From an uncultured archaeon (lineage in GTDB: Archaea; Asgardarchaeota; Lokiarchaeia; Sigyniarchaeales; SOKP01): a stretch of DNA of 15,982 nucleotides. Made by a program: the position numbers and the translations under genes. This document shows, one piece after another, positions 284 to 15,599 of this stretch. The stretch's first letter is position 1. The number at the start of each line of letters is the position of its first letter. Location: assembly GCA_964583985.1 (NCBI GenBank), contig CAZOYD010000071.1, positions 1 to 15,982 of the forward strand, in the 5' to 3' direction. The notes under the pieces were generated by a model. That model saw only the letters and a program-made list of their open reading frames with translations, made no database searches and was not told the DNA's origin.

Positions 284-2467
284 TTAATCTTGATTCAATT
301 TTATTGGTTTATTGGTTTTTATACTTTCAATTGTTTTAAATACTAATTCCATTGCTTTTAAAGCGTCATCTTCATTAACTAGAGCTGTTGATAATCCTAA
401 ATTAGTTAAAATTACCGTATTTAACTCATTTCGGTGTCCCTTGTCTTGTACATTTAAAAGAATGTTTCCAAAACCAAAACCAGAGGTGTTCATTTTTTTA
501 AAATCATCAATCATTATAGCTGAATCTCCAGAATATATCTCAATACGCTCTTTAGGCATGTCTGGACCATTTAGATCGGTATATATTAAGTTAGCTATTG
601 ATCCATTTTGAAAGCTAATCATGACAACGCAACTGTCGAATACCTCTGTATTTTTATGACTCATATTTCCACCTAGTGCAAATATCTCTACCGGGTTTGA
701 ATTCATTAAATATAGAATTAAATCAATAAAATGACAAAATTCACCAATAATTGGACCGCCTCCCGTTTTAGGATCAAATACCCAGTGACTTCCTGGTATG
801 AATGAGCTGGCAATTCGATAATTGATTATTATTGGATTCACGCGTTCGCTAATTAATTTCTTAACATCAATTATTAGTGGACTATATCTTCGATTAAATC
901 CAATACAATAATTTAAGTTAGTGTTTTTGACGGTATCGTGCACCTCAAGACATTCTTGATACGTAATTCCCATTGGTTTTTCGACATAAACATTTTTTCC
1001 AGCTTTAAGCGCCTCAATTGCGAATCTAGCGTGCGTATGATGCTGAGTATAAATAAAAACCGTGTTAATATCTGGATCTTTAAATATTTTTTTGTAATTT
1101 GTTGTTACATAGCCAGGTCTATATTTATCTTTACAAATATCAGCAGATTTTTGCGATTTAGTTGCGATTGCTTTAATCGTGCAATTTTTATTCGGTAATA
1201 AAAGGGGTAAATGCGTTCCTTGAGCGAAGCTTCCACACCCTACTAAACCAATTATCAATTTTTCATGCGGTTGTTTATTTGGGATCTCATGCTGATTAAT
1301 GAGCTTTTCATTCGTTTCTTCTGAAAATTTCAATAATATAGCGATATTGTCGATAGGATCCTCATCTAATTTTTTATAGGCTTGGTCTGCTATTTCAGCG
1401 GGGATAATCTCAGAGATCAACGGAGAAACATCGATTTTTTTCTCTGAGAGTAGTTTTAAAAATAATTCCATATTTCTTTGCTCTGTCCAAGGTACATATT
1501 CTTTAGGATAATCAAAACCTTCAAATTCATAATAAGGGTCATACCTACCAGGTCCATAAGACCGTGAGATCAATAAGTCAGCTTCTTTGTAATATATCTT
1601 ATTCCTATCAACAGAAATTGGAAAAGCGCCTAGCATGACGATTTTTCCTTTATCTCGGATTAATGAAATTGCATCATCTAAGATTTTTGCTGATTTGGAT
1701 GTAGCACAAATTATTACCGTATCTAATAACTTACCATTTGTGAATTCACTGACAATACTTACGCTATTATAATAATTTGGATTGCAAATCGAATCAGCTC
1801 CCAATTTTTTAGCCAAATTTAATCGTTTATTAATTAAATCAAAAGCGATAACTTGAGCTCCACATGCTTTTGCTAATTGAATTGTGATCAAGCCGATCAA
1901 TCCTGTTCCAATTACTCCTATAAATTCTCCAGCGACAATATTTGCTCTATGAATTCCATTAAGAGCTATAGCTCCCAATGTCGAAAAAGCAGCTTCTTCT
2001 AATGAGACATTATCTGGAATTTTACATGTTAGATTTTTAGCCGAAAAAATCATTTCTGCATGACTAGATCCAGCACAAGCTACTCTATCTTGTGGTTTAT
2101 AAGCATCAACATTAGATTCTACTACTACACCTGAGCAACTATAACCCAAAGGTGAAAAATCTGAAAGTGGATTTTTGAAATTTTTCAAAATATTCTTTTC
2201 TTTGTAGATTTTAAATAGTTTTAACAACCTTCTGATTGAATGCTTTCTTAATTCCTCAAACATTTTCCCACGTAAATACTTTGACGAAATAAATTGTTTT
2301 ATTATAGAGGCGCTGATTAATCGTTTCCACTTTATTGCTGCGAGTTCTGTACCGGAACTAATCAATGCATAACTAGTTTTTACAACAGCTCCTAGTGTTT
2401 GCAATTGAGGTTCTCCGACTTCTTTCAAAACTACTTGCCCTTGTGGATTAATATAGAGCTTTTTCAT
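284..2467 (-). CDS. Bi-domain oxidoreductase (N-terminal MDR/Zn-ADH-like domain + C-terminal Gfo/Idh/MocA domain), polysaccharide-biosynthesis associated
   Basis: 727 aa. Motifs LISSGTE, PLGYSCSG, Rossmann GTGLIG and SRSYGPGRYDPYYE..G.DYP..YV.WTE.RN; second Rossmann VGCGSFA, plus VYVEKP, GFNRRYSP, GGPIIGEFCHFID and KERIE. Confidence 0.9.
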   Translation of the reverse strand: MKKLYINPQGQVVLKEVGEPQLQTLGAVVKTSYALISSGTELAAIKWKRLISASIIKQFISSKYLRGKMFEELRKHSIRRLLKLFKIYKEKNILKNFKNPLSDFSPLGYSCSGVVVESNVDAYKPQDRVACAGSSHAEMIFSAKNLTCKIPDNVSLEEAAFSTLGAIALNGIHRANIVAGEFIGVIGTGLIGLITIQLAKACGAQVIAFDLINKRLNLAKKLGADSICNPNYYNSVSIVSEFTNGKLLDTVIICATSKSAKILDDAISLIRDKGKIVMLGAFPISVDRNKIYYKEADLLISRSYGPGRYDPYYEFEGFDYPKEYVPWTEQRNMELFLKLLSEKKIDVSPLISEIIPAEIADQAYKKLDEDPIDNIAILLKFSEETNEKLINQHEIPNKQPHEKLIIGLVGCGSFAQGTHLPLLLPNKNCTIKAIATKSQKSADICKDKYRPGYVTTNYKKIFKDPDINTVFIYTQHHTHARFAIEALKAGKNVYVEKPMGITYQECLEVHDTVKNTNLNYCIGFNRRYSPLIIDVKKLISERVNPIIINYRIASSFIPGSHWVFDPKTGGGPIIGEFCHFIDLILYLMNSNPVEIFALGGNMSHKNTEVFDSCVVMISFQNGSIANLIYTDLNGPDMPKERIEIYSGDSAIMIDDFKKMNTSGFGFGNILLNVQDKGHRNELNTVILTNLGLSTALVNEDDALKAMELVFKTIESIKTNKPIKLNQD

Positions 2468-2556: not shown

Positions 2557-4629
2557 TTATTGGCTAATGACTTTAAATTCTGTAGTGATATTCACACTAT
2601 TTTTACTTGCAAAATTTTCAAATAGTTGTATCTTTAAGACCGGTATTTGTTGAGATTCTCCATATTTGGGAGCAATTTCAGCACTATCTAGTTCATATTG
2701 AAAAGACGAATCTGATGAGATGTTTAGCATTATCTCCTTATTAATTAAGACATTATTCTGTTCTTTTAAATCAATATCTAATAATGTATCTTCAGCAAAA
2801 TGATATATCAAGGCTATTTCATGTGTTTTATTCTCATAATTTTTACTTCTATCTGGCTGAATCATATCTTTAATGATAATTGTTTTTAAATTCCTTGAAA
2901 CCATAACATGCCGTTGAACTAAAAATCCATTATATCCGTCATGATTACATGAAAATTGAACCAAATCATTGCTCTCAATGACTTTTCTGCTAATCTTGGG
3001 TTTTTGGGCCCAACTAAACCAATATAATGGTATAGCTTGACTCTTATTATCAATTGAAATCACATTGTGAGCCATGCTATTCCGGAAATAATTTCTTTCT
3101 TTCATTGATTTATTGTAGGATTTTGTTCCGCTATCTATTAGAATATCTTTCCCGTTATATGAAAAAATTATATTTGATATTCCACTATGAGAATGTGGTG
3201 CATTTTGCGGGCCGAAGTTTCCTAAATCGCTAAATAAATAACTCGATTTATCTCCCCACCCGTCTCTTATGAGAATATATCCAGAATTTTCATAAAATAT
3301 CACTTTTTTTTTTTGCTCATTGAATTTTAAAGAATCTACTGAATTTATCTTTTCGATACCCATCAGTAAGAGTGATATAGGAGATAAATTTTTATTGATA
3401 TTTTTTAAATCAGAAGATTTGAATAAAATGCTGCCCAGGTTTATTAAATCCAAATGCGACTTGTCATTATAACCAGATAATAAAAGAACTTTTCCATTAT
3501 CAACATCACCAACTAAAGGAAGTTTTCCATTAGGTTTAACGATATCCGATAAATTTATAATCATATTTTTGATTATAATCCCTTCAAGACTTTCGATTAA
3601 ATCTTTATTTAGTAGAATAAAAAGTATAAAAAATTCAAGTACAAATCTATGGTAATTAACTGATTGCTCTATGTTAAATCCATCTGGTCGAGTCTGTAAT
3701 GATATTTGTGCTTTTAATTTAGGATATAAGACATGTTCCCAACTTTTTACCTTCTTGTAACCATTAAATATGTTGGAAAATAAGTATCCTCCAAATAATT
3801 CGCCAATAGTATGGTTGAATGATCGTTTGGTGTAAAAAAATCGCAAATAATAAGCATGTTGAAACATGGATCGAAAAATAACCTTGAAAAATTGAGAATC
3901 ATTAATTATTTCTGAGTTTTTAAAAAAATAGAGAGTAAATATCCAAGAAATTAAACGGATCGAAATTTCTAATCCAGAGTACCAATTAATTCCAATCATT
4001 GGTGGATTGCATTTTATCCAGTCCAAGATTATTTCCTTAAATTTAAGAGCATATTTCTCATCTTGAGTGTAATAATATGCAAACCCCAAATATGTTAAAA
4101 AGAGATGTCGGTTTAATTCCCAAACATATTTTACATCAATATTTTGACCATTAAATTTTGGTCTGATTTCTAATTGATTAGATTGAATCATTCTCCAATT
4201 GTAATTATCTACAAAACCATAATGCCAATTAATACCTTTTTCAAATTTTATGCGTTTTTCAAATATCTGAAAGTCATCCTCAATTATACAATTAGCATAG
4301 TCAATAAATTGATCCTTCTCTTTAGAGCATTCCTTGTCCAAGTAGTTAATTATAGCTGAACGTTCTTCTATATTTGAATAAAAGAAGAAACTTTCTTGAA
4401 AAAAAGTCTTGGATAACTCATCAATCTGGAGATTTTTTCCCAGATATTTATTAAATAGGAATTCTGAAGATTTAGAATTGCGTAAATATCTCCTACGTTT
4501 CTTAATTATAGGAATTTGAATGAATTTTTCGAAAAGGATTTTGTAATAATTAACTAAGTTAAAGTATGTTATGGGTCTGGGATTTTTTAAAAATGGGAGT
4601 TTACCCATAATGAATCGCTTATTTATCAT
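2557..4629 (-). CDS. Heparinase II/III-like (alginate lyase fold) protein
   Basis: 690 aa. Motifs DVKYVWELNRH, WI..NPP..GINW, LEISIRLISW, NH, EQSVNYH, GDVD, GP..APHSH, DSGT..Y and R..FR...AHNVI.ID. GAGGA SD-like motif upstream; no obvious signal peptide. Confidence 0.88.
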   Translation of the reverse strand: MINKRFIMGKLPFLKNPRPITYFNLVNYYKILFEKFIQIPIIKKRRRYLRNSKSSEFLFNKYLGKNLQIDELSKTFFQESFFFYSNIEERSAIINYLDKECSKEKDQFIDYANCIIEDDFQIFEKRIKFEKGINWHYGFVDNYNWRMIQSNQLEIRPKFNGQNIDVKYVWELNRHLFLTYLGFAYYYTQDEKYALKFKEIILDWIKCNPPMIGINWYSGLEISIRLISWIFTLYFFKNSEIINDSQFFKVIFRSMFQHAYYLRFFYTKRSFNHTIGELFGGYLFSNIFNGYKKVKSWEHVLYPKLKAQISLQTRPDGFNIEQSVNYHRFVLEFFILFILLNKDLIESLEGIIIKNMIINLSDIVKPNGKLPLVGDVDNGKVLLLSGYNDKSHLDLINLGSILFKSSDLKNINKNLSPISLLLMGIEKINSVDSLKFNEQKKKVIFYENSGYILIRDGWGDKSSYLFSDLGNFGPQNAPHSHSGISNIIFSYNGKDILIDSGTKSYNKSMKERNYFRNSMAHNVISIDNKSQAIPLYWFSWAQKPKISRKVIESNDLVQFSCNHDGYNGFLVQRHVMVSRNLKTIIIKDMIQPDRSKNYENKTHEIALIYHFAEDTLLDIDLKEQNNVLINKEIMLNISSDSSFQYELDSAEIAPKYGESQQIPVLKIQLFENFASKNSVNITTEFKVISQ

Positions 4630-4640
4630 AAATAATCCTC

Positions 4641-5897
4641 TTAAGTAAATTCAACAAATATTTTCTCAATTTCTTTAACTCTATTATCCCACGTATATTG
4701 ATGTAGTTGTTCTGGAGATATACTTGACTCAATTCGGTTTTCTTTTAAACCATTTATTATTTCTTCAAATTTTTTTAGTCCTGTTTCAAAATCGTTGATT
4801 GGAATGGTATAACCGAGATTATTCTTGTCTAAAAATTCTGCTGTATAAGAATTATCTCTCCCTAAATAGAGTATCTTTTTTCCCATGCTTAAATATTCCA
4901 AGATTTTAAAACTTAATGTTGGATAATTAAGATTTTCTCCTACATGTAAAGCTAAAGAAGAATTATATACTTCTTCTAAGCACACTTCACGAAGGACAAA
5001 TCCCTCTAAATGAAAATATGTGGAAACCTCATATTTTTTGAATAGAGATGTTAAACGTGTTGCATCATATCTACCAAATATTTTAATATTTAAAGATATA
5101 TCAGTAAGCTTTCCTAATTTATGAGATATAGATACGATTTTCACTAATGGTTCAAGATCCCTGAGACCATATAAATTACCTGTAAAAGTAAAGGTAATTT
5201 CTTTAGGATTAGCATTTCTTCTAGTTAATTTACTACTCTCATCAACATTGATACCATGAGGAATGGCATGAACATTATTACTTTTTACTTCAGGAAAATT
5301 ATCTAGTAAGAATTTTTTCATACCTTCACTTATTGCAATTATCCTATCAGCAGAATTGAGGATCCTTTTTTCCATTTTCAAATAAAAATTTTCAATTGAC
5401 TTAGTCATCGTGTCTTTTAAATACGGGTTATAAGACCAAGGATCTCTGTATTCTATAATTAAAGGGATTTTACAAAAAAATTTTAATAAATATCCTATTG
5501 GTAAGGTAAAGAATGGTGGTGCCGATACATATATCAATTTTATATTATTCTTTTTAATAATTCTCCTACTTGCCAGAAATGCTAAAGGAATCCAATGAAG
5601 AAAAAGGATAACATTAAAAATCTCAAAATATAGCGTAGTTTTTTTAATATTTGATTGAAATCCTTCCTTCGCAAAACTTAAATTGAAAACCTTCGTGTTT
5701 TTAATTAAGGGAGATTTAACTTTCTTAAGGAGTTCTTTATCCTCATGAGCATTTTTATTCGATTTCGCACTTACAACAAAAATCTTATACCCCTTTTTCG
5801 CTAATCTTTTCGTAATCTCAGAAGCTCTAATGCTCAAAATGTTGCTAAATGGGGGGAAATGGTAAGAAATGAATAATATTTCTTTTAACATGGGCAA
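4641..5897 (-). CDS. Glycosyltransferase family 4 (GT-B); start may be ATG at 5891
   Basis: 418 aa. Motifs FISYHFPP, SAPPF, EYRDPWS.NPY, IPHG, FTGNLY..RD and KILEYLSMGKKIL. Confidence 0.88.
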   Translation of the reverse strand: MPMLKEILFISYHFPPFSNILSIRASEITKRLAKKGYKIFVVSAKSNKNAHEDKELLKKVKSPLIKNTKVFNLSFAKEGFQSNIKKTTLYFEIFNVILFLHWIPLAFLASRRIIKKNNIKLIYVSAPPFFTLPIGYLLKFFCKIPLIIEYRDPWSYNPYLKDTMTKSIENFYLKMEKRILNSADRIIAISEGMKKFLLDNFPEVKSNNVHAIPHGINVDESSKLTRRNANPKEITFTFTGNLYGLRDLEPLVKIVSISHKLGKLTDISLNIKIFGRYDATRLTSLFKKYEVSTYFHLEGFVLREVCLEEVYNSSLALHVGENLNYPTLSFKILEYLSMGKKILYLGRDNSYTAEFLDKNNLGYTIPINDFETGLKKFEEIINGLKENRIESSISPEQLHQYTWDNRVKEIEKIFVEFT

Positions 5898-5961: not shown

Positions 5962-7128
5962 TCATTTCTCCTCGGATTCTGCAAGATATTTCATAAAATC
6001 TTCTTTATATTCTTCTGGATTTTTGTTAGGTCGCTTTAATTCTGCTTTCGTTCCCCGTTTTATATTAATTACTATTAAAATTGGGCCATCTCTCGTTTTG
6101 ATTTCAGGAATGATTTCACCTAATTCTGTTAGAGTATTAACTAAATAAGCAGATTTGTAATTCGATGCCAAGGCAACCTCGCAAAAGTCAACCGAATCTG
6201 AATTTGTTGGTTGACCTCCTGTAGATTCATGAGTATTATTATTGAATATAATTTGTACAAAATTCGTGGGTTTATATTTGCCCACCGTGGAAAACGTACC
6301 AAATTGCATAATTGCTGCGCCATCACCATCAAAAACTACAATTCGCCTATTTGGCTTTTGAAGTGCTATACCTAAACCAATGGAACTCGCACATCCCATA
6401 GAACCGATATTATAAAAACTCTTATAATGATCTTTTTCTCTTTCTTCTCGATATTCATATAGTTCTCGTGAAAGATGACCGGTGCTAGAAATGATTATAC
6501 CTTCAGAAGTGAGATTCTCCATTAAAAAAGTTATGGCATCTTCCCTGTTAATTTCGTATGAATTTTCTGCTATTTCTGAATCGCTATATTTTTGGAATAA
6601 ATTGGGTTTAATAATCAGTGCAAAAGGACCTTTTTTTTCCTTTAGATAACTAATGGCTTCAGAAACATGTGTTTGAATTAATTTTATATCAGGTTCTAGG
6701 ATTTTGTATGGAATCTGAAGAGTATCTAACAGAGATAATGTAATTTTTCCCATTTTCTTATGTTGAGGGGCATCTTTTGTTCCAGGTTCACCTCTCCATC
6801 CAATCATCATGAGAATTGGAATCGAATATACTTCTCTATCGCATAACGAAGTCAATGGATTAACAGTTTTTCCAAGTCCTGAATTTTGTAAGTAAACAAT
6901 ACCAAATTTCTTTGTTGCTAAATGATAACCTGTAGCTATAGCAATTGCTTCACATTCATTGCATGCGACAATGTTTCGCAATAATTCTGGATCCTTTTCA
7001 ATAATGAACTTCATCCACTCCTTGAAAGTCGAATCCGGAATTCCTGTAAAGAAGGTTAAATTATTATCCTTCAAAATCTTAAAAAAATCTTCACATTTTA
7101 TCATATCCGCATCAATCTCTTTAGTCAT
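5962..7128 (-). CDS. aepY: Phosphonopyruvate decarboxylase (Ppd), ThDP-dependent, single chain
   Basis: 388 aa. Motifs FFTGIPDS, YLQNSGLG..VNPL, IGWRGEPG.KD.PQH, GSMG.AS, ThDP motif GDGA...NN and HESTGGQPT. Co-located with PEP mutase; ATGA overlap with the upstream gene and GAGGA upstream. Confidence 0.92.
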   Translation of the reverse strand: MTKEIDADMIKCEDFFKILKDNNLTFFTGIPDSTFKEWMKFIIEKDPELLRNIVACNECEAIAIATGYHLATKKFGIVYLQNSGLGKTVNPLTSLCDREVYSIPILMMIGWRGEPGTKDAPQHKKMGKITLSLLDTLQIPYKILEPDIKLIQTHVSEAISYLKEKKGPFALIIKPNLFQKYSDSEIAENSYEINREDAITFLMENLTSEGIIISSTGHLSRELYEYREEREKDHYKSFYNIGSMGCASSIGLGIALQKPNRRIVVFDGDGAAIMQFGTFSTVGKYKPTNFVQIIFNNNTHESTGGQPTNSDSVDFCEVALASNYKSAYLVNTLTELGEIIPEIKTRDGPILIVINIKRGTKAELKRPNKNPEEYKEDFMKYLAESEEK

Positions 7129-7847
7129 CTTAATTCCTCTTTATAATAAGTTCGAGCTACTTCTAAATCTTCAAAATCATCAATTTCCATGCACTTCTCG
7201 TCATTGATATAGTTAGGTCTCAAATCTAATTTGTCTAAAATCTCATTTAAAGCATCTTCCGCATAACAAGAAACTTGATCGTTTTTTACGTATTTTTCTA
7301 TTTCTTTAAACCATTCCTCAAAGAAATGTTTTGAAAGTTTATACAACGGGGCTAAGAAAGCACAATCCTCCCCAAATTCATTTACACCAATTTTTATGAT
7401 TCTATCATCAATAATTCGCGCTTTAAAATCTTTTTGAGGGACTTGCATTTCTCTATTAACTAGAACACAATTTTTTTCATCATTTTTAATAATTTGATTC
7501 AAAATATTGTCCGAAAAGATTAAATCTCCATGCATTAATAGAACATCATCATTGATTTGATTTTTAGTTAAATATAAGGAATAGATGTAATTAGTTTGAT
7601 CATATTTTGGATTTTGTATATAGACCACATGAAGACTTGGATAGTTCAATTCAACATGGTGCTTAATCATGCCTTCAAAAGGCCCAGTGAGAATCACGAG
7701 TTTTTCTAAACCACTTTTGATGAGATTTTCAAGTTGAACATCCAATATAGTTTTATCATTATTCACTTTAACTAAACATTTAGGATTATTTTCCGTGAGA
7801 TGACCAAGTCTTTTTCCAATTCCCGCATTCAAAATTATAACTTTCAT
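7125..7847 (-). CDS. LicC/PntC-family nucleotidyl (cytidylyl) transferase, probably phosphonate-activating
   Basis: 240 aa. Motifs IILNAGIGKRL..LT...PKCL, NPKYDQTNYIYSL, LLMHGDL and EIDDFEDL. ATGA overlaps on both sides (7844-7847 and 7125-7128). Confidence 0.88.
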   Translation of the reverse strand: MKVIILNAGIGKRLGHLTENNPKCLVKVNNDKTILDVQLENLIKSGLEKLVILTGPFEGMIKHHVELNYPSLHVVYIQNPKYDQTNYIYSLYLTKNQINDDVLLMHGDLIFSDNILNQIIKNDEKNCVLVNREMQVPQKDFKARIIDDRIIKIGVNEFGEDCAFLAPLYKLSKHFFEEWFKEIEKYVKNDQVSCYAEDALNEILDKLDLRPNYINDEKCMEIDDFEDLEVARTYYKEELR

Positions 7848-8992
7848 CTTATTTCTCTTAAAATACCCCTCAGTTCTGATTCAGTCAGTATTCTTGGGTT
7901 ATTTTTAACTCTATTAGGTGTGAAACCATTTTTTATAATTAATTCGATATCATCTTCTGATTTTATTCCTAGCGAGTGTAAATTTGTTTCTAATGCTATA
8001 TCATCCATTAGAGTTAATATGTTGGCTTTAGCTTCTTCGAAATTTGATGCATTCAAAAAGGATATCAAATCTTTTAATGTTTTTTTCACGAATAAGACAC
8101 CCCTTGCATCTTGACAATCTTTTTCTTTTATTTCTGAATTGAAAATAATCATCGGAGGTAAAGTTAAAGCAACGGCGTGACCGTGAGGTACATGGAAATA
8201 TGATGTTATAGGATATGATATTGCATGACATGCTGTAGTTTTTGTAATATTTATTGCTTTTCCTGCATAATTAGCAGCAATTGCCATGTTTATTCGAGAA
8301 TCTTTATCTGGATCATTCACGGCCTTAACAAGATTAGACATTATTAACTCAATTGCTTTTTTTGAATATCCTTTTGATTCGTTAGTGGAATATATATTCC
8401 AATACGATTCAATTGCTTGAGTTAAGGCATCCATTCCTGAATAAGCGGTAATTTTCTTTGGTAATTTTAGGCTGAACTGGGGATCAACAATGATATAATC
8501 GGGTTTTAAGAAATTTTGATCTACCAAGGAATATTTCGTTTTTCCGATATAAACTACTGCAAAATGTGTTGCTTCACTACCAGAACCCGCAGTTGTCGGG
8601 ATTCTAATTAGTGGAATGCCTTTTTTCGAGATCGGTATTTCTTTTTTTATTATTTTTATTGGATCCCCTTCATTTGATGAAAATATAGAAATGGCTTTCC
8701 CCATATCCTGAACAGAACCCCCTCCAATGGCAATTATTACATCATAGCTCTCTTGTTTGAATAAATCTAACCCCTTTTTAATATCTTGAATGTTTGGATT
8801 AGGTGCGAAATCGTTAAATTGATAGTATTGGACTCCCCTGAGTAAATCTAGCATAACACTTTTAATCTCTTTCTGTTCAAATGAGTTCTTTCCAGTAATC
8901 AAGAATATCTTTTTAAAATTATTCTTTTCTATGATATCCTTTAAATTCTCAATTGAATCAAATCCAATGTATTCCAGCATGCGATTTCTCAA
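7844..8992 (-). CDS. Phosphonoacetaldehyde reductase (iron-containing group III ADH, HEP-forming); start TTG at 8992 or ATG at 8980
   Basis: 382 aa. Motifs PNP, GGGSV.D.GK, IPTTAGSGSEATHFAV, DALTQAIES.W, AGKAINITKTTACHAISYP and PHGHAV, typical of the PhpC/FomC-like subfamily. Lies between pepM and ppd. Confidence 0.9.
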   Translation of the reverse strand: MRNRMLEYIGFDSIENLKDIIEKNNFKKIFLITGKNSFEQKEIKSVMLDLLRGVQYYQFNDFAPNPNIQDIKKGLDLFKQESYDVIIAIGGGSVQDMGKAISIFSSNEGDPIKIIKKEIPISKKGIPLIRIPTTAGSGSEATHFAVVYIGKTKYSLVDQNFLKPDYIIVDPQFSLKLPKKITAYSGMDALTQAIESYWNIYSTNESKGYSKKAIELIMSNLVKAVNDPDKDSRINMAIAANYAGKAINITKTTACHAISYPITSYFHVPHGHAVALTLPPMIIFNSEIKEKDCQDARGVLFVKKTLKDLISFLNASNFEEAKANILTLMDDIALETNLHSLGIKSEDDIELIIKNGFTPNRVKNNPRILTESELRGILREIR

Positions 8993-9017: not shown

Positions 9018-9053
9018 TATTTAAAAATTATTTAAAAATTATTTAAAAATTAT
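9018..9053. repeat. Perfect tandem repeat (TATTTAAAAAT) x3 plus a partial copy
   Basis: 11-bp units at 9018-9028, 9029-9039 and 9040-9050, then TAT. Overlaps the pepM stop codon. Confidence 0.9.
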
Positions 9054-10744
9054 AGAAGCTTTTCAGCCACTTCTACATCATTCTTATTATGGATTTCAAA
9101 CCAACCCTTGTATACTTCTAATAAATTGACTTTAAAGCCCCTATCAATAACCTCTTGAATGAAATCGGTAAAAGAAGCATTTTCAAAGGATTCGGCTTCG
9201 TGAAATGGATCATCATGATTTGCAACACATTCATGATAAATTTTCTTTATTATACTTGCACCATATTCTGAAAAATACGCGATCCCGGTGAATTCATAAT
9301 CCGCCATGTTTGTATTTATATTTTTTCCTATTCTTATGACTTCATTATCTTTTAGGTACAACATCCTACGCTCTTTGATAGGTTTATTTTTGGCCAAAAT
9401 TAAATCCAATTTTTTATCAACGTCGTGTTTATGATAAGTATAGGAATTATCAACCACTAATACCATATCTTGAGACGTATTTAATAAATTATTAATTATT
9501 TGCTTGTCAAATAAGATATCCGAATTAAGATAAATGAACCCATTACTCATGTCTTCTTCAGCTTTAAATAAAGAATGGAGGATATACGTTTTATCATAAT
9601 CGGGATTATATACATACTTTATCCCATCGATATTGATTAAGTTTCCCTTGTATCCTTTAACTACGGTGATGTCTTCTAACCCGCAACTTCTTAGTATTTC
9701 TCTCTGGCGCACGAGTAGTTCTTTCCCTTTGACTTTGACGACTGATTTGGGTTTATCAAATAACAAATCTTTTCCAGCAGCCGGAATAATGACCCGTATA
9801 TTTCTTTCTTTATACTTTAAATCCTTTTCCCTTACCTCAATAAATCCCACGTCTTCAAAAATCGTGTTAACAGGACTGCACATTGATTCAACTTCAAAGG
9901 CTCTCCCATGTTTTAAAATATTCAAAGCTGTTTCTTTCATTACTTTATGAGCCGCGCGAAGCAAATGGTTAGCATAAATTACAACATTAAACCCTTTTTC
10001 TCTCAATTCCGCTTCACTTACGGTATTATATGTGGTCGGAACGCAAATGAGAGGTTTTCGCATGCCTAATTCCTCTGATAATTTTTGATATTCCCTAGCA
10101 AAGTCAAAAATATCTTCTGGATTATCTTTTTTAGAATGAATCATGATTGCATCCACTCCCGCATCCAAATATTTTTTTGCTCTGAATAACGCATCTTCCA
10201 GACCTGCTCCAGCAATAAAACTTTCTATTCTGGCAGCGATCATGAAATCTGGTGATAATTGAATGCTTTTTCCTCTCTCAATTTTGATCGCAAAGGTATT
10301 AGGGTCTTCCTGAGTCTGCTTCGCTCGAGGATCCAAGCTATTTCTCTTTGGGAATACTTTATCTTCAATAATGACCATGGAAACGCCCATATTTTCCAAT
10401 TCTCTTATAAAATACTCAAAATTTGTAGCTTCCCCTCCCGTATCTCCATCAACTATTAACGGTTTAGTAGAACTATTGAGGATCTGCTTAATTGTGGTGT
10501 ATCTTGATTCAGAGCCCACTATGTCCGCATCAGGATACCCTTTTGAGGCACTATCCGTTAAACTGCTTTCCCATAACGCGTCAAATTCATATACTTCATC
10601 CCCAACCTTTTTTTTAATGTCATTTGCAATAATCGCACTCAATCCATTATGTGCTTCAATTACTCTTACAAAACCTTTCTTATCAAGCAATTGCTTTAAT
10701 GCCTTCCTTCTTTCTTCTGGGGCTATCCTGTTCTTTAAACTCAT
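9050..10744 (-). CDS. aepX: Phosphoenolpyruvate mutase (PepM) fused to a C-terminal nucleotidyltransferase-like domain
   Basis: 564 aa. Diagnostic EDKxxxxxNS motif EDKVFPKRNS (10337-10366), plus EAHNGLSA, WESSLTDS..KG.PD, VDGDTGG, ARIES, MIHS, VPTTY and VIYANHLLRA. From about 9797 an NTP-transferase domain: VIIPAAG...PK, VVKGY, YILHSL, SDILF, GWFEIH. Confidence 0.96.
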   Translation of the reverse strand: MSLKNRIAPEERRKALKQLLDKKGFVRVIEAHNGLSAIIANDIKKKVGDEVYEFDALWESSLTDSASKGYPDADIVGSESRYTTIKQILNSSTKPLIVDGDTGGEATNFEYFIRELENMGVSMVIIEDKVFPKRNSLDPRAKQTQEDPNTFAIKIERGKSIQLSPDFMIAARIESFIAGAGLEDALFRAKKYLDAGVDAIMIHSKKDNPEDIFDFAREYQKLSEELGMRKPLICVPTTYNTVSEAELREKGFNVVIYANHLLRAAHKVMKETALNILKHGRAFEVESMCSPVNTIFEDVGFIEVREKDLKYKERNIRVIIPAAGKDLLFDKPKSVVKVKGKELLVRQREILRSCGLEDITVVKGYKGNLINIDGIKYVYNPDYDKTYILHSLFKAEEDMSNGFIYLNSDILFDKQIINNLLNTSQDMVLVVDNSYTYHKHDVDKKLDLILAKNKPIKERRMLYLKDNEVIRIGKNINTNMADYEFTGIAYFSEYGASIIKKIYHECVANHDDPFHEAESFENASFTDFIQEVIDRGFKVNLLEVYKGWFEIHNKNDVEVAEKLL

Positions 10745-10797
10745 GTTCTGCTAACTATTTTTTATATTTTAAAAATCAAATTTTCTTTCAATGGTGT

Positions 10798-10823
10798 TAT
10801 CATTACCAAGACTATCATTACCA
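10798..10823. repeat. 11-bp direct repeat TATCATTACCA x2 in the pepM/tagF divergent intergenic region
   Basis: Exact copies at 10798-10808 and 10813-10823. Confidence 0.75.
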
Positions 10824-10884
10824 TGAATAGATATCTTTTACTATTCCTCATAAATATTTATCGATCATACTATAAACTAATATT

Positions 10885-10950
10885 TTATTTTGATAAGTTA
10901 TAGAGAGAATTTATGTTTTCTCCCATGGCAAAATAAATCTCATCGGACAT
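10885..10950 (-). pseudogene. Decayed 5' fragment of a wecB duplicate
   Basis: Reads (LNL)MSDEIYFAMGENINSLYNLSK* versus WecB (LNL)MSEEIYFVAGARPNF. By hand count 29/32 nt are identical between 10929-10960 and 13503-13534. Confidence 0.75.
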
Positions 10951-11044
10951 CAAATTCAATCAGAACCTTCAAATTTTGTATTTTTTGTAGAAGTTGTAAA
11001 ATAAATATATTTAATACAAGATTAAATGCATTCAATTAGAAAAA
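10921..11044. repeat. Degenerate direct repeat, copy 1 (copy 2 at 13495-13618)
   Basis: Two conserved blocks at the same 2574-bp offset: CAAAATAAATCTC.TC.GACATCA.ATTCAAT and ACAAGATTAAATGCA..CAAT.AGAAAAA. Confidence 0.85.
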
Positions 11045-11069
11045 AAAATATGATAAAGAGAAATATGCA

Positions 11070-12290
11070 ATGAATTTACAATTTGAGAAGTTCTCGTTTA
11101 TAAATAAGAGTTATTATTATAAATTTATAAGGGACATTCTCCTACCTTTCGGTCTCAAAATTATTTCCAAATTGTTTCGGGGCAATATTGATGAAAAGCT
11201 AATAATTATGGGCGCTTATGGTGGAAATTTTTACTTGGGAAATCCTCGAGCATTATTTGAATTCTTAAACAAGCACTCAAATTATAAAGTGGTCTGGATA
11301 ACGAAATCAAATAATTTAGTTAAAGAATTAAGAAGAAAGGGGTATAATGTCATTTACTCGTTAAATATTAATGCAATTAGATTATTAAGAAAAGCAAAAT
11401 TTGTCTTTATTACTCATGGAATCTATGATGTATTGCCAATAGAATTTTCCCCCGGTACAACAATTATTCAAACTTGGCATGGAACCCCAATAAAAAAAAT
11501 CGTTCTTGACGAAACAGGTAACTACGCATACTCAAAATGGAGTAATATACTAAAATTAAAATTGAGATATGACCAGTACATAGATTTCTTGTTAACTCCA
11601 ACAAGGGGCGGCTTGGAGCACGAAAACTTAAGCTCAGCCTTTAAGATCCCTCTAAATAAAATTATCAGTCTAGGATACCCAAGACATGATATTTTATTTA
11701 ACAAAGATGAGGAATTTATCAAATCTTTAAAGAAAAAATTTGAGATCTCTGATGATTTTAATAAAATTATGTTGTATTGCCCAACTTTTAGAGAGTTTGA
11801 AACAACAAGCTTTAAGATTTCAGATAGAGATTTAGAAAACCTAGATGGCATGCTAAAGGAAACTAACTCGCTTTTTCTAATCAAAGGCCATCTTTTTGGA
11901 AAATTAGCTGATCATCGAGGACATGCTAATATTAGAAATATCTCAAGAGAAATTGACATTCATGAACTATATCTAATTTCAGACATATTAATCACCGATT
12001 ATTCGTCAGCGATGATTGATTTCTCTTTATTGGATAAACCAGTTTTACTATTTCCATATGATTTAGATGAATACATTAAAAAGCGAGGCTTCTATTACAA
12101 TTTAAATGATATTGCACCTGGACCTTTAATATTTACTTTTACTGAATTAATTGAAGCGCTGAGAAATATTGATGAAATTGAAAAAATTTACGGTGAAAAA
12201 CGAAGAAAAATACGAGATCGCTTCAACAAGTACGTGGATGGAGATTCTACAAAAAGAATTTTAGACTTCTTACAAATTCCCTATTATTAA
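11070..12290 (+). CDS. CDP-glycerol:poly(glycerophosphate) glycerophosphotransferase family (TagB/TagF-like) protein
   Basis: 406 aa. Motifs QTWHGTPIKK, GYPRHD, LYCPTFR, KGH, LITDYSSAMIDF and YDLDEY...RGFY. Confidence 0.92.
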   Translation: MNLQFEKFSFINKSYYYKFIRDILLPFGLKIISKLFRGNIDEKLIIMGAYGGNFYLGNPRALFEFLNKHSNYKVVWITKSNNLVKELRRKGYNVIYSLNINAIRLLRKAKFVFITHGIYDVLPIEFSPGTTIIQTWHGTPIKKIVLDETGNYAYSKWSNILKLKLRYDQYIDFLLTPTRGGLEHENLSSAFKIPLNKIISLGYPRHDILFNKDEEFIKSLKKKFEISDDFNKIMLYCPTFREFETTSFKISDRDLENLDGMLKETNSLFLIKGHLFGKLADHRGHANIRNISREIDIHELYLISDILITDYSSAMIDFSLLDKPVLLFPYDLDEYIKKRGFYYNLNDIAPGPLIFTFTELIEALRNIDEIEKIYGEKRRKIRDRFNKYVDGDSTKRILDFLQIPYY

Positions 12291-12426: not shown

Positions 12427-13539
12427 TTATTCAAAATATTTTATTTTAATAATATCCATGATTCTTCTTGCCGCGTTTCCATCCCACCCTGCAATTTCTT
12501 GCCCTTTCTTGTATTTAGACTCTAAAATGTCATTGATTTGACCCTTTAACAATTCAAAATCTCGCCCGATAATCGTGTTTGTTCCAAATTCTACGGTAAT
12601 AGGACGTTCAGTATTCTCTCTCAGAGTTAAGATAGGTATTCCCAGATAAGAAGCCTCTTCTTGAATGCCTCCTGAATCCGTTAAGATCAATTTTGAATTA
12701 ACCATCAAATTTAGAAACTCTAAATATCCGATAGGTTCGCTTATAATCAAATTTTCACTTTTTAATCGTTCATATAAACCATATTCAATGAGATTCTTAT
12801 TTGTTCTCGGATGAACTGGGAAAAAAATCTTAATTCTCTCACTTAGATAATTTAACGCATCAACTATTTTTATTAAATCCTCTTTTTTATCTACATTAGA
12901 AGGTCTATGGAGTGTGATTAGAGCGTATTCCTTTTTTCGCAATCCCAAACTCTTATAAGTATCAAGAAGTTTTGCTTTTTCCAAATTCATGACCAAAGTA
13001 TCAATCATCACATTCCCAACAAAAAAAATCTTCTCTTCCTCAATTCCTTCATTCTTTAAGTTGATTTCAGCGTCTTTTTCCGATGTAAACAAAAGATCAG
13101 AGATTTGATCAGTTAAAACCCTGTTAATCTCCTCTGGCATCTTTCTATCAAAGCTTCTTAGTCCTGCTTCCACGTGTGCAACATCAATAAAAAGTTTCTT
13201 AGCAACTAACGCACACGCAATGGTGGAATTCACGTCTCCGACCACTACGACAAGCTTCGGCTTTTCTTTTAACAAGAGTTTCTCAAATTCAATCATTATT
13301 TTTGCTGTTTGGTATGCATGTGTCCCAGATCCTGCTTCAAGAAAATGATCCGGCTCGGGAATCTTTAAGGCATCAAAAAATACACGAGACATGTTGTAAT
13401 CATAATGTTGACCAGTATGAATGATTTTAAACTTGATTCCTAGCTCCACCGATTGATGAACTAATGGAGCAATCTTCATGAAATTCGGTCTCGCTCCTGC
13501 GACAAAATAAATCTCTTCTGACATCAGATTCAATTCCAA
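12427..13539 (-). CDS. wecB: UDP-N-acetylglucosamine 2-epimerase (non-hydrolysing); likely start ATG at 13524
   Basis: Motifs GARPNFMKIAP, HTGQHYD, VGDVNST, HVEAGLRS, MPEEINR, TLHRPSNVD, TDSGGIQEE, RENTERP and WDG.AA.RI. Confidence 0.96.
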   Translation of the reverse strand: MELNLMSEEIYFVAGARPNFMKIAPLVHQSVELGIKFKIIHTGQHYDYNMSRVFFDALKIPEPDHFLEAGSGTHAYQTAKIMIEFEKLLLKEKPKLVVVVGDVNSTIACALVAKKLFIDVAHVEAGLRSFDRKMPEEINRVLTDQISDLLFTSEKDAEINLKNEGIEEEKIFFVGNVMIDTLVMNLEKAKLLDTYKSLGLRKKEYALITLHRPSNVDKKEDLIKIVDALNYLSERIKIFFPVHPRTNKNLIEYGLYERLKSENLIISEPIGYLEFLNLMVNSKLILTDSGGIQEEASYLGIPILTLRENTERPITVEFGTNTIIGRDFELLKGQINDILESKYKKGQEIAGWDGNAARRIMDIIKIKYFE

Positions 13540-13618
13540 CCTTTATTTTCTACTGGTGATATTGTAATTTTTTTACGAATTAATTTTACACAAGATTAAA
13601 TGCAAGCAATAAGAAAAA
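13495..13618. repeat. Degenerate direct repeat, copy 2 (wecB 5' end and upstream region)
   Basis: Colinear with 10921-11044; by hand count 29/34 nt identical for 13585-13618 versus 11011-11044. Confidence 0.85.
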
Positions 13619-13679: not shown

Positions 13680-15599
13680 TCATATAATTTCATACAATTG
13701 AAATTGCTGAATACTATTTCCTCCCGCTATTCTCTCAAATAACGTCTCATTTTCAATATGCAATCGGAGAGCTTCATTATAATTTGCCAATTTTATGATA
13801 AAGTATTCTACATTATTAATTTGCCAAAAAGTAGTAAATTCGGTTATCGTCAAGTTGTAGTCATCTGAATAAGGAAATAGATGCTGATTAAACAACAATC
13901 CAAAAGGGGAATGCGTTTCTTGGAACGTGTAATTTATATAATTCCACCCTACCCCAATATTAGATGACACCTCTGAAGTATTCTCGATATAAAACACAAT
14001 AGCAATGAGCGAATCATCATATCTATATTCAAATTCTAAATTCTCTCGAACATAGATCAAATTCAAGCAAGATGCAAGAATGATTGTAAAAATTATTAGG
14101 TTCGGAACATTTAATACCCGACTAAACTGATTATCCGCATTAATCCACTTGTTAAATTTTAACTTGGAAATTTTGAGTTTTTGCCAGTAGTTTTCTAAAT
14201 ATAATTTTAATCTATACAATGAAATTCCAGATAGAAGAACAACACAAGGAAAAAAAGCTTCGAGAATTCTGGGGTAATAAGTATCAAAAAAACCTATTTT
14301 AATAAAAATTGGGAGAATGCAAAATATTCCAAACGTTAATAGTACGCAAATTTTTAGGAAACGATAAAAATCTCTCCTTTTCTGATCTTTAACATCTCTA
14401 TTTCTGATGAAAATTCCCATGATAGGTAAAACTAAGAATATAAAGTAATAGACTCCACCTAATATTAAGTTAAATACATTGGTTTCTTCAATAATAATAG
14501 GAGTGAAAGAAATAGTAATTGCATCGATTGTGGAGTATTGGATAAAATATGCGAAAATCTCAACAATATTTTTCCCATAAAACATGATTACACTAATACC
14601 ATACACCGATAAAAAAAATAATGACAATAACGCAATTGACCCCACTTCTCTATAAATCAAGGATCTCTTGGATCGGAAGTTTAAGATTTCATGGGAAGAA
14701 AAAACAATTAATGCTAATAAAATAAAAAACGAATAGACCGGATTAATGAGAAAAATAGCCGGTAGTATAAATCCTACGAAATAATTCGGAATTTCCGTTA
14801 AAAGAATAATCAATGAAATCAAGATCAGCAAAACTGCAAGACTGGATGAGAGAAAACTAAAAATCCGATATAAAAAATACATGTTAGACAAAACTGCTAA
14901 TAAACAAAAGAATATTAGAAAGTTCTCCTTGAATATCCTTCTCGATATCGTGTATAAAATTAAAACATACAAATTGAGATATGGAAAACATGCCAATTTC
15001 ATGAAATAATAGGTCGTGGTAAAATCAGGTGAAATCATTACACTTCCACTGCAAAACATGATGAAACCCCACGGATAAGTCCAACCCTGCTCTTGATAAT
15101 TTACCATCCCATTTTCATTAAGATACATTACTTGCCGAGTCCAATAATAGGGGTCACCAGCCAATAACGCCGAATTCTCAAAGATTGATGACCAATAAAT
15201 CAAAAATTGAACTAAAAAGATAAAGAATATAATAAAACCATGAATAAGGAGTTCTTTTTGGTTCGACTTTAACGCTCTTATTAAATAAGACCATGTTTCA
15301 TGAAATGTCTTATTTCTGAGAAAATAAAATAGAAGAAGTGCCAAGATTATTAACAGCGGTAAATACGCGGTGTAAAAATTAAAAATCTTGAAACTGATAA
15401 GGATATATCCTAAGCATAGGTATATCATTATCCCAACAGCAAATGAAATAAAGCAATATTCAAGTAGGGTTAGATTCCATCGTTTTTTGCTGTATTTCCG
15501 AAGTATATATACAACCATTCCTCCCAATGAAGCAATGAGAACAAAAAATAATGAAAATTGTGCATAAGTTATTAGGAGTTGATTGGTTATTGTCATCAT
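13680..15599 (-). CDS. Polytopic membrane protein (about 13-14 hydrophobic segments by eye), putative GT-C/STT3-like glycosyltransferase
   Basis: 639 aa, strongly hydrophobic. Loop motifs LLAGDPYYW and YPWGF; soluble C-terminal domain of about 120 aa. The CDS is secure, the function tentative. Confidence 0.7.
   Translation of the reverse strand: MMTITNQLLITYAQFSLFFVLIASLGGMVVYILRKYSKKRWNLTLLEYCFISFAVGIMIYLCLGYILISFKIFNFYTAYLPLLIILALLLFYFLRNKTFHETWSYLIRALKSNQKELLIHGFIIFFIFLVQFLIYWSSIFENSALLAGDPYYWTRQVMYLNENGMVNYQEQGWTYPWGFIMFCSGSVMISPDFTTTYYFMKLACFPYLNLYVLILYTISRRIFKENFLIFFCLLAVLSNMYFLYRIFSFLSSSLAVLLILISLIILLTEIPNYFVGFILPAIFLINPVYSFFILLALIVFSSHEILNFRSKRSLIYREVGSIALLSLFFLSVYGISVIMFYGKNIVEIFAYFIQYSTIDAITISFTPIIIEETNVFNLILGGVYYFIFLVLPIMGIFIRNRDVKDQKRRDFYRFLKICVLLTFGIFCILPIFIKIGFFDTYYPRILEAFFPCVVLLSGISLYRLKLYLENYWQKLKISKLKFNKWINADNQFSRVLNVPNLIIFTIILASCLNLIYVRENLEFEYRYDDSLIAIVFYIENTSEVSSNIGVGWNYINYTFQETHSPFGLLFNQHLFPYSDDYNLTITEFTTFWQINNVEYFIIKLANYNEALRLHIENETLFERIAGGNSIQQFQLYEII

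Follow-up and report, generated by a model that had tools for sequence, protein, structure and literature searches.

A TagF-family protein encoded beside the phosphonate genes of a Lokiarchaeial contig, a candidate for the transfer of 2-hydroxyethylphosphonate to a glycan

How is an activated phosphonate transferred to a surface glycan? The steps after formation of the carbon-phosphorus (C-P) bond have been called 'enigmatic' (Rice et al., 2019, PMC6697681). In our study, this question was raised by contig CAZOYD010000071.1 (contig C71) of an uncultured archaeon of the Lokiarchaeia, which was analysed over its whole length of 15,982 bp and is referred to as the window. A gene at positions 11070-12290 encodes a protein resembling TagF and lies next to pepM, the gene of the phosphoenolpyruvate (PEP) mutase. 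The original prediction held that this protein could take cytidine monophosphate (CMP)-activated 2-hydroxyethylphosphonate (HEP) as its donor, instead of CDP-glycerol. We found that the protein has the family, the fold and the catalytic residues of TagF, that the genes of its clade are linked to pepM, and that the donor loop of the family varies with the neighbouring cassette. With some reserve, we favour the reading that the window enzyme transfers HEP from CMP-HEP to a glycan.

The TagF-like protein and its linkage to pepM

The gene was found to be a single, intact open reading frame with an ATG start, encoding 406 amino acids. The protein matched PF04464 (Glyphos_transf) over residues 39-400 with an E-value of 1.3e-78 and 265 bits, against a cut-off of 22. 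All the NCBIfam equivalog scores were below their cut-offs; the best was that of TarF (203 against 550), followed by TarL (103 against 1000) and TarB (87 against 500). Alignment to the TagF of Staphylococcus epidermidis (3l7i) covered the whole catalytic domain, from residue 38 to 400, with an E-value of 7e-42 and 27% identity. The AlphaFold model had a pLDDT of 89 and a pTM of 0.88, and the closest fold found by Foldseek was the C-terminal domain of TagF 3l7i (TM 0.76), followed by TarL 8va1 and the capsule polymerase Cps3D 8qoy. The claim of a TagF-like gene was thus confirmed. The H137 and H274 residues aligned with the catalytic H444 and H584 of TagF (H300 and H433 of TarL), and the W-H pair, both catalytic His residues and the TDYSS motif were invariant in 36 homologues. 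The features of the protein are as follows.

11070..12290, plus strand: TagF/TagB-family GT-B phosphotransferase of 406 aa, candidate CMP-HEP transferase (open reading frame, PF04464, AlphaFold model)
Residues 15-36, plus strand: N-terminal amphipathic basic helix
nt 11475-11498, plus strand: W136-H137 with the catalytic base, in the loop WHGTPIKK (TagF alignment)
nt 11883-11897, plus strand: second catalytic His274, in KGHLF (TagF alignment)
nt 11994-12008, plus strand: nucleotide-binding TDYSS, residues 309-313

The amphipathic helix suggests monotopic membrane binding, and release of CMP from a CDP- or CMP-activated donor would be expected of a member of the family. Nearly all the homologues were from Asgard metagenome bins, under the labels Promethearchaeota, Lokiarchaeia, Thor- and Hodarchaeota. 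Contig C33 of the same genome encodes a second PF04464 paralogue, which has 54% identity to the window protein; its listed open reading frame of 359 aa is shorter than the open frame of 418 aa.

For the linkage to pepM, 399 Asgard genomes were searched with the TagF-like protein and with the PepM equivalog model, and about 9 kb on each side was fetched for every TagF homologue and for 20 PepM loci. The clade of the window protein contained seven members (the window, G252, G241, G264, G265, G243 and the contig P0011), and all seven were found within about 1.5 kb of pepM. The proteins of G252, G241, G264, G265 and G243 were 57-80% identical to the window protein, and their genes directly adjoined that of the PepM fusion, in the same direction and with gaps of 6-111 bp. 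The P0011 protein was 82% identical, and only wecB lay between its gene and pepM. In the window, the gene diverges from pepM (9050-10744, minus strand) across a spacer of 325 bp, as had been stated.

A TagF-like gene was present within 10 kb at 12 of the 42 true PepM loci of the Asgard genomes, in five genera of three families. Further PepM-linked TagF proteins belonged to separate clades (G147/G145, G170/G175, G048 and G013). A tree in which the PepM-linked TagF proteins of family f1 were forced into one clade was rejected by the approximately unbiased (AU) test with p 1e-28, the PepM-linked group having been set by gene context, but after the tree had been seen. Because these proteins do not form one clade, the linkage to PepM arose repeatedly, in at least three separate TagF clades. 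Among the genomes of family f1, PepM was found in 20 of 36 with TagF versus 11 of 98 without it, an association that is overstated by the kinship of the genomes.

When scanned with a hidden Markov model built from the TagF alignment, the 20 separately fetched Asgard PepM loci all proved to lack a member of the family. The closed single-contig genomes G138 (6.04 Mb) and G143 (4.32 Mb), of the same order as the window, carry a cassette of PepM, phosphonopyruvate decarboxylase (Ppd), iron-containing alcohol dehydrogenase (Fe-ADH) and nucleotidyltransferase with no TagF-like gene nearby, at L076 (G138:C1:4923000-4942500) and L077 (G143:C1:1146000-1165500). An actinobacterial sample of 401 genomes of one order gave 18 PepM-like matches, and 13 loci were fetched. 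No TagF-like open reading frame was found within about 9 kb at these 13 actinobacterial PepM loci, three of which carry the set of PepM, Ppd and Fe-ADH, or at the single gammaproteobacterial locus. A separate search for related loci gave only three TagF homologues, all of them bacterial, distant and not in the neighbourhood of a PepM gene.

Donor loops and supply cassettes

In TagF and TarL, the site of the donor polyol is the loop directly after the catalytic His, where P-L stands for glycerol and G-A-F for ribitol (PMC10901376). Among the Asgard proteins, the following discrete classes of this loop were found, each given with its gene neighbourhood.

TP: HEP cassette, or neither a nucleotidyltransferase nor supply genes adjoining
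GD or AD: 2-aminoethylphosphonate (AEP) cassette
VQ: inositol-phosphate synthase genes
TV: nucleotidyltransferase and transporter of the major facilitator superfamily (MFS)
GF or IL: the locus frame of GD/AD, without PepM

For a test of this pattern, proteins were chosen by motif alone and their contigs were inspected afterwards. The GD/AD-loop proteins were all encoded inside operons of PepM, Ppd, nucleotidyltransferase and AEP transaminase (4/4); two of the four genes are flanked by the nucleotidyltransferase gene and that of the transaminase, and one has a 4-nt overlap with the transaminase gene. The two GF proteins and the single IL protein had the same locus frame and no PepM cassette. 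The VQ protein had an inositol-phosphate synthase gene 6 kb away, and the TV protein a nucleotidyltransferase and an MFS gene. The Asp residue of the loop was seen only beside cassettes that supply an amine. An acidic loop residue confined to amine head groups is what would be expected of a TagF-like enzyme in contact with the head group of the activated phosphonate. The nucleotidyltransferases were found to track the head group as the loops do. That of the AEP cassette matched PntC of Treponema denticola with 146 bits and kept the amine-contacting Glu104 and Glu196, and the 240-aa nucleotidyltransferase of the window matched it with 42 bits and contained His106 at the site of the amine-contacting Glu104.

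Two further loci bear on the loop. At L105:7096-10236, where no PepM gene is near, a fusion of nucleotidyltransferase and class I/II aminotransferase (600 aa) is encoded divergently to a TagF-like gene whose loop is QD; this may be another amine-bearing head-group module. The TagF-like gene at L036:11626-12864 has a frame of the AEP type in a genome without PepM, and the near-invariant Trp before its catalytic His is gone (GHGGG), possibly through decay after loss of the cassette.

The commonest neighbour of the Asgard TagF-like genes was a LicC/IPCT-like nucleotidyltransferase. Neighbours of about 268 aa had also been taken for nucleotidyltransferases; they were rejected as HAD-IIA hydrolases drawn in by single-linkage clustering. 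Beside TagF and nucleotidyltransferase genes, four supply modules were found, namely the HEP cassette, the AEP cassette, inositol-phosphate synthase and an organophosphate transporter. In the AEP cassette, an AEP transaminase (TIGR03301, 442 bits) replaces the Fe-ADH. The inositol module contains two inositol-phosphate synthase genes and an IPCT-like nucleotidyltransferase and lies beside other TagF clades. The transporter module contains an MFS protein of the organophosphate:phosphate-antiporter type, resembling PgtP, UhpC and GlpT. WecB often adjoins the TagF type of the window. The frame of WecB, TagF, supply module, GT4 glycosyltransferase, heparinase-like protein and ADH-GFO oxidoreductase recurs in G248 and on the contig P0036, where a nucleotidyltransferase and an MFS gene replace the HEP cassette and the TagF is from a different clade.

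The tandem inositol-phosphate synthases recur in Asgard archaea as a module that also comprises an IPCT-like nucleotidyltransferase and a TagF-like gene, at L030, L032, L033, L036 and L040 (e.g., L032:5886-10221). The distinct WHGVQ-NKRN loop of these TagF-like proteins suggests a putative CDP-inositol-dependent enzyme; we know of no description of CDP-inositol as a donor for the TagF family. At L017, L018, L020 and L109, and next to pepM at L066-L074, a nucleotidyltransferase of 254-310 aa is paired with a PgtP/UhpC/GlpT-like MFS gene. This pair adjoins TagF-like genes with the TV loop in genomes with or without PepM, and the head group at these loci may be imported rather than synthesised.

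Genus g12 was found to have the HEP cassette without TagF, paired with CDP-alcohol-transferase-like and sulfatase-fold genes; the HEP cassette thus has at least two downstream solutions, of which TagF is one. Such pairs of a CDP-alcohol phosphatidyltransferase-like gene and a gene of the sulfatase/alkaline-phosphatase fold stand beside the HEP cassette at L066-L074, L081 and L082 (e.g., L067:5477-16280), and the pairing would be a second, membrane-type route for the activated phosphonate. Double TagF-TagF fusions of about 815-826 aa were found at L034:3184-5631, L036:4909-7353 and L041:3214-5694, and at L101-L108. They are accompanied by more TagF-like genes, methyltransferases, radical SAM enzymes and ABC exporters of the Wzm/Wzt type, and by analogy these loci look like a teichoic-acid-style assembly line in Asgard archaea.

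In the widest reading, the Asgard TagF-like proteins would form a modular head-group system in which the short loop after the catalytic His specifies the donor, whether HEP, AEP, inositol phosphate or an organophosphate taken up from outside, and the HEP-linked members, the window enzyme included, do more than cap a glycan and build a teichoic-acid-like polymer with phosphonoester (C-P) links along its backbone. Taken as a whole, we consider this a long shot.

Proposed function and its alternatives

The cassette of the window is of the HEP type, because the window contains no AEP transaminase; a Fe-ADH is present. The PepM contains the EDKxxxxxNS motif of true PEP mutases. Two nucleotidyltransferase domains belong to the cassette, an NTP_transf_3 domain fused to PepM and a stand-alone LicC/PntC-like protein. 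The genes and the spacer around the TagF-like gene are as follows.

9050..10744, minus strand: PEP mutase (motif EDKVFPKRNS) fused to a C-terminal NTP_transf_3 domain (TIGR02320, 342 bits, above cut-off)
10745..11069, no strand: AT-rich divergent spacer of 325 bp between pepM and the TagF-like gene, holding copy 1 of a direct repeat
7844..8992, minus strand: iron-containing alcohol dehydrogenase, PhpC/FomC-like (below the Phn_Fe-ADH equivalog cut-off)
7125..7847, minus strand: LicC/PntC/IPCT-like nucleotidyltransferase of 240 aa, putative HEP cytidylyltransferase
5962..7128, minus strand: Ppd (TIGR03297, 427 bits, above cut-off)
12427..13539, minus strand: WecB, non-hydrolysing UDP-GlcNAc 2-epimerase (TIGR00236, 343 bits)
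4641..5897, minus strand: GT4-family glycosyltransferase, conserved glycan frame
2557..4629, minus strand: heparinase II/III-like protein, conserved frame
284..2467, minus strand: two-domain oxidoreductase, ADH_zinc_N with GFO/IDH/MocA, conserved frame
13680..15599, minus strand: 639-aa protein without family assignment, homologues of which recur beside TagF-like genes in related loci

The genome of the archaeon has 3.8 Mb in 138 contigs and is 100% complete by marker genes. The window has a GC content of 30.8% versus 31.7% for the genome, and its gene order is common to genomes of the same genus; contamination by a foreign contig was rejected on these grounds. The stretch was present in salt-marsh metagenome runs of 2019, and no RNA run was among those listed. 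A degenerate direct repeat with 80-83% identity and a spacing of 2574 bp flanks tagF and wecB, with copy 1 (10920-11044) in the spacer between pepM and tagF and copy 2 (13494-13618) over the start of wecB. This flanking repeat, together with the order PepM-WecB|TagF in the closest relative (L086), suggests that duplication and loss moved tagF beside pepM in inverted orientation.

The proposed route starts with PepM, Ppd and Fe-ADH, which would make HEP; in it, the Fe-ADH would reduce phosphonoacetaldehyde to HEP. The 240-aa LicC/PntC-like nucleotidyltransferase would be the HEP cytidylyltransferase and convert HEP with CTP to CMP-HEP, a known metabolite and the product of Fom1 (PMC6697681). 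At the membrane, His137 of the TagF-like enzyme would deprotonate a hydroxyl of a lipid-linked glycan, the acceptor, which probably contains a ManNAc-type sugar derived from WecB. The glycan hydroxyl would attack the phosphonate phosphorus and CMP would depart with the assistance of His274, so that the mechanism would be that of TagF, except that a phosphonate replaces glycerol phosphate. The resulting glycan would carry one or a few HEP phosphonoesters and would later be displayed at the surface. In this route, we infer the donor, the acceptor and how many HEP units are added. The analogy of the original prediction with the linkage unit of teichoic acid fits in part, in that WecB often adjoins TagF-like genes of this type; a genome search for TagA/WecG gave no homologue.

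The choice of donor depends on what else the genome could supply. No TagD- or TarI-type polyol cytidylyltransferase was found by the family scans of the window, as had been noted, and the genome search for tagD gave a best match of 30.9 bits to the TagD equivalog (TIGR01518), against a cut-off of 165. Across the genome, IspD/TarI had no match above cut-off and LicD (PF04991) no match, and homologues of the CDP-alcohol transferase (f65) and of the sulfatase-fold enzyme (n1003) were not found by tblastn. The only activating enzymes nearby are those of the phosphonate pathway, which makes CMP-HEP the probable donor, its C-P bond replacing the C-O-P ester of glycerol. Four PF01467 genes were found in the genome, encoding CoaD, two NMNAT-like proteins and a 146-aa protein without assignment. 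The gene of the 146-aa protein (G000 contig C35:5656-7439; L008:657-2439) lies two genes from a CDP-alcohol phosphatidyltransferase gene and may encode a RibL-type FAD synthase or be part of a CDP-alcohol lipid head-group pathway; we take an FAD synthase, as in archaeal RibL, to be likely.

Several findings weigh against CMP-HEP as the donor. The window loop WHGTPIKK is a canonical glycerol-type, PL-like motif (WHGTPLK in TagF), and the sister clade, to which the C33 paralogue belongs, has the identical loop and no adjacent nucleotidyltransferase, its genes lying among those of PheRS, RNase PH and an epimerase. The PepM-adjacent clade differs from the sister clade at no more than eight positions, all conservative, and the residue comparison of the two gave no clear specificity signature. 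Sister-clade enzymes are also present in genomes where PepM was not found, such as G249, a genome 98% complete that has neither PepM nor the MFS module. With this shared loop and these PepM-less sister genomes, the active site therefore has no phosphonate-specific adaptation, and CDP-glycerol or a small CDP-alcohol is possible. HEP, a small neutral hydroxyalkyl group, may fit the glycerol-type pocket unadapted, or else these enzymes may use a small CDP-alcohol. In addition to the two nucleotidyltransferase domains of the cassette, the genome contains nine NTP_transf_3 genes, and an unlinked supply of CDP-alcohol is therefore conceivable. The window gene is inverted relative to the pepM operon. 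Finally, the expected co-occurrence of orthologues with pepM was complete in the window clade, but orthologues outside the immediate clade were often without it. The idea of a CMP-HEP donor is thus favoured by the linkage to pepM, the lack of TagD, TarI and LicD, the covariation of loop and cassette and the precedent of FtaD (see below), and opposed by the glycerol-type loop and the sister enzymes without PepM.

These points lead to the alternative that survives best, that of an ordinary phosphotransferase for CDP-glycerol or another small CDP-alcohol. HEP would then be attached by another enzyme, or not to this glycan, and the link to pepM would reflect a common glycan product and not a common substrate. 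The loop would be read as the glycerol-type PL motif of TagF, TarF and TagB-type enzymes (PMC10901376), near-identical sister-clade enzymes do occur in genomes without PepM, and the CDP-alcohol could come from the PepM-fused domain or from one of the nine other NTP_transf_3 genes; yet neither a TagD equivalog nor TarI is present in the genome, and no other phosphotransferase candidate linked to the cassette (LicD, CDP-alcohol transferase or sulfatase fold) was found. The actinobacterial PepM loci (0/13 with a TagF-like gene) indicate that phosphonate cassettes do not generally need TagF, whereas in relatives the TagF gene is embedded in the phosphonate operon or overlaps it, and in other members of the family the loop motif goes with the head group that the cassette supplies. 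On balance, we consider this alternative rather unlikely.

It had also been suggested that the enzyme might be a polymerase, with the 2-hydroxyl of the last HEP as acceptor and a teichoic-acid-like poly(HEP) phosphonoester chain as product. HEP retains a terminal hydroxyl as glycerol phosphate does, the catalytic domain is most similar to that of the polymerase TagF, and related Asgard loci contain several TagF-like genes, double-TagF fusions and ABC exporters. The polymerases of the family, however, carry an additional N-terminal domain (PMC10901376), which is absent from both the sequence and the model of the 406-aa protein; only about 38 residues, forming one amphipathic helix, precede its GT-B domain, and in size the protein resembles TagB or TarF. 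There is no ABC exporter in the window, and the sequence carries no sign on processivity. The suggestion of a chain thus found no support, and we consider it very unlikely.

That the enzyme is promiscuous, or acts in trans with the C33 paralogue, with any small CDP or CMP head group accepted and the context setting the supply, is hardly probable: the C71 and C33 paralogues have identical loops and few differences near the active site, and PepM was found elsewhere in 10 of the 14 genomes whose TagF-like gene adjoins neither pepM nor a nucleotidyltransferase, but the loop differs by cassette type elsewhere in the family, which argues for matched specificity, and the window and sister clades stay separate lineages.

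Relation to known systems

Asgard archaea are the closest prokaryotic relatives of eukaryotes, and their surface chemistry is little known. Genes for phosphonate decoration were found to be common among them. The window locus and its relatives provide a defined candidate for the biochemically elusive enzyme that attaches phosphonates to surface glycans, and the loops provide a sequence rule, a donor-loop Asp for amine head groups. Phosphonoglycans are thought to be relevant to grazing and virus resistance and to the marine phosphorus cycle (PMC8931226). Among the papers covered by our literature searches, none proposes or tests a phosphonate transferase of the TagF type and none deals with phosphonates in Asgard archaea. 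What is new here is an archaeal phosphotransferase of the TagF family that probably acts on a phosphonate donor and belongs to a modular head-group system.

The closest known enzymes are TagF, TagB and TarF (PF04464; S. epidermidis TagF, PDB 3L7I-3L7M), with which the window protein shares the GT-B fold (TM 0.76, 27% identity), both catalytic His residues, the W-H stacking pair, the TDYSS motif and the glycerol-type P-[L/I] loop. WecB is a neighbour here as in the loci of wall teichoic acid. Unlike the hosts of these enzymes, the present host is an archaeon without peptidoglycan or teichoic acid, and unlike in teichoic-acid systems, TagD, TagA and TarI were not found in its genome and the nearby activating enzymes are those of the phosphonate pathway.

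FtaD (CD0244) of Clostridioides difficile is a TagF-like enzyme that uses CDP-N-methylthreonine as donor in vitro (bioRxiv 10.64898/2026.02.12.704994). As in the window, a TagF-like enzyme is combined with a dedicated nucleotidyltransferase, and FtaD places a non-polyol head group on a sugar as a single decoration and not as a polymer. By description, however, the donor of FtaD is the phosphate ester of an amino acid and its acceptor is the O-GlcNAc of flagellin.

In the Pnt pathway, a PepM-nucleotidyltransferase fusion and PntC are followed by a LicD-like transferase or a glycosyltransferase, as proposed for AEP (Rice et al., 2019, PMC6697681). The window resembles it in the PepM fused to a nucleotidyltransferase and the second, LicC-like nucleotidyltransferase for the CMP-phosphonate, with transfer to a surface glycan as the proposed next step. 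It differs in the head group, which would be HEP (Fe-ADH and no AEP transaminase), and in that the TagF-like enzyme stands in the place of LicD, which the genome lacks.

The early steps of the fosfomycin pathway (Fom1, Fom2 and FomC) also resemble those proposed here, with PepM, Ppd and Fe-ADH leading to HEP and then to CMP-HEP. The cytidylyltransferase of Fom1, however, is an N-terminal PF01467 domain, whereas the nucleotidyltransferases of the window are of the LicC/MobA type. In that pathway, moreover, CMP-HEP is formed only transiently on the way to an antibiotic, whereas the window is a glycan locus. The HEP-modified exopolysaccharides of Glycomyces and Stackebrandtia (Yu et al., 2014, as cited in PMC8942020) are, in the account of the citing article, the only isolated HEP-glycan conjugates; on that account they prove, although in actinobacteria, that HEP esters on polysaccharides exist.

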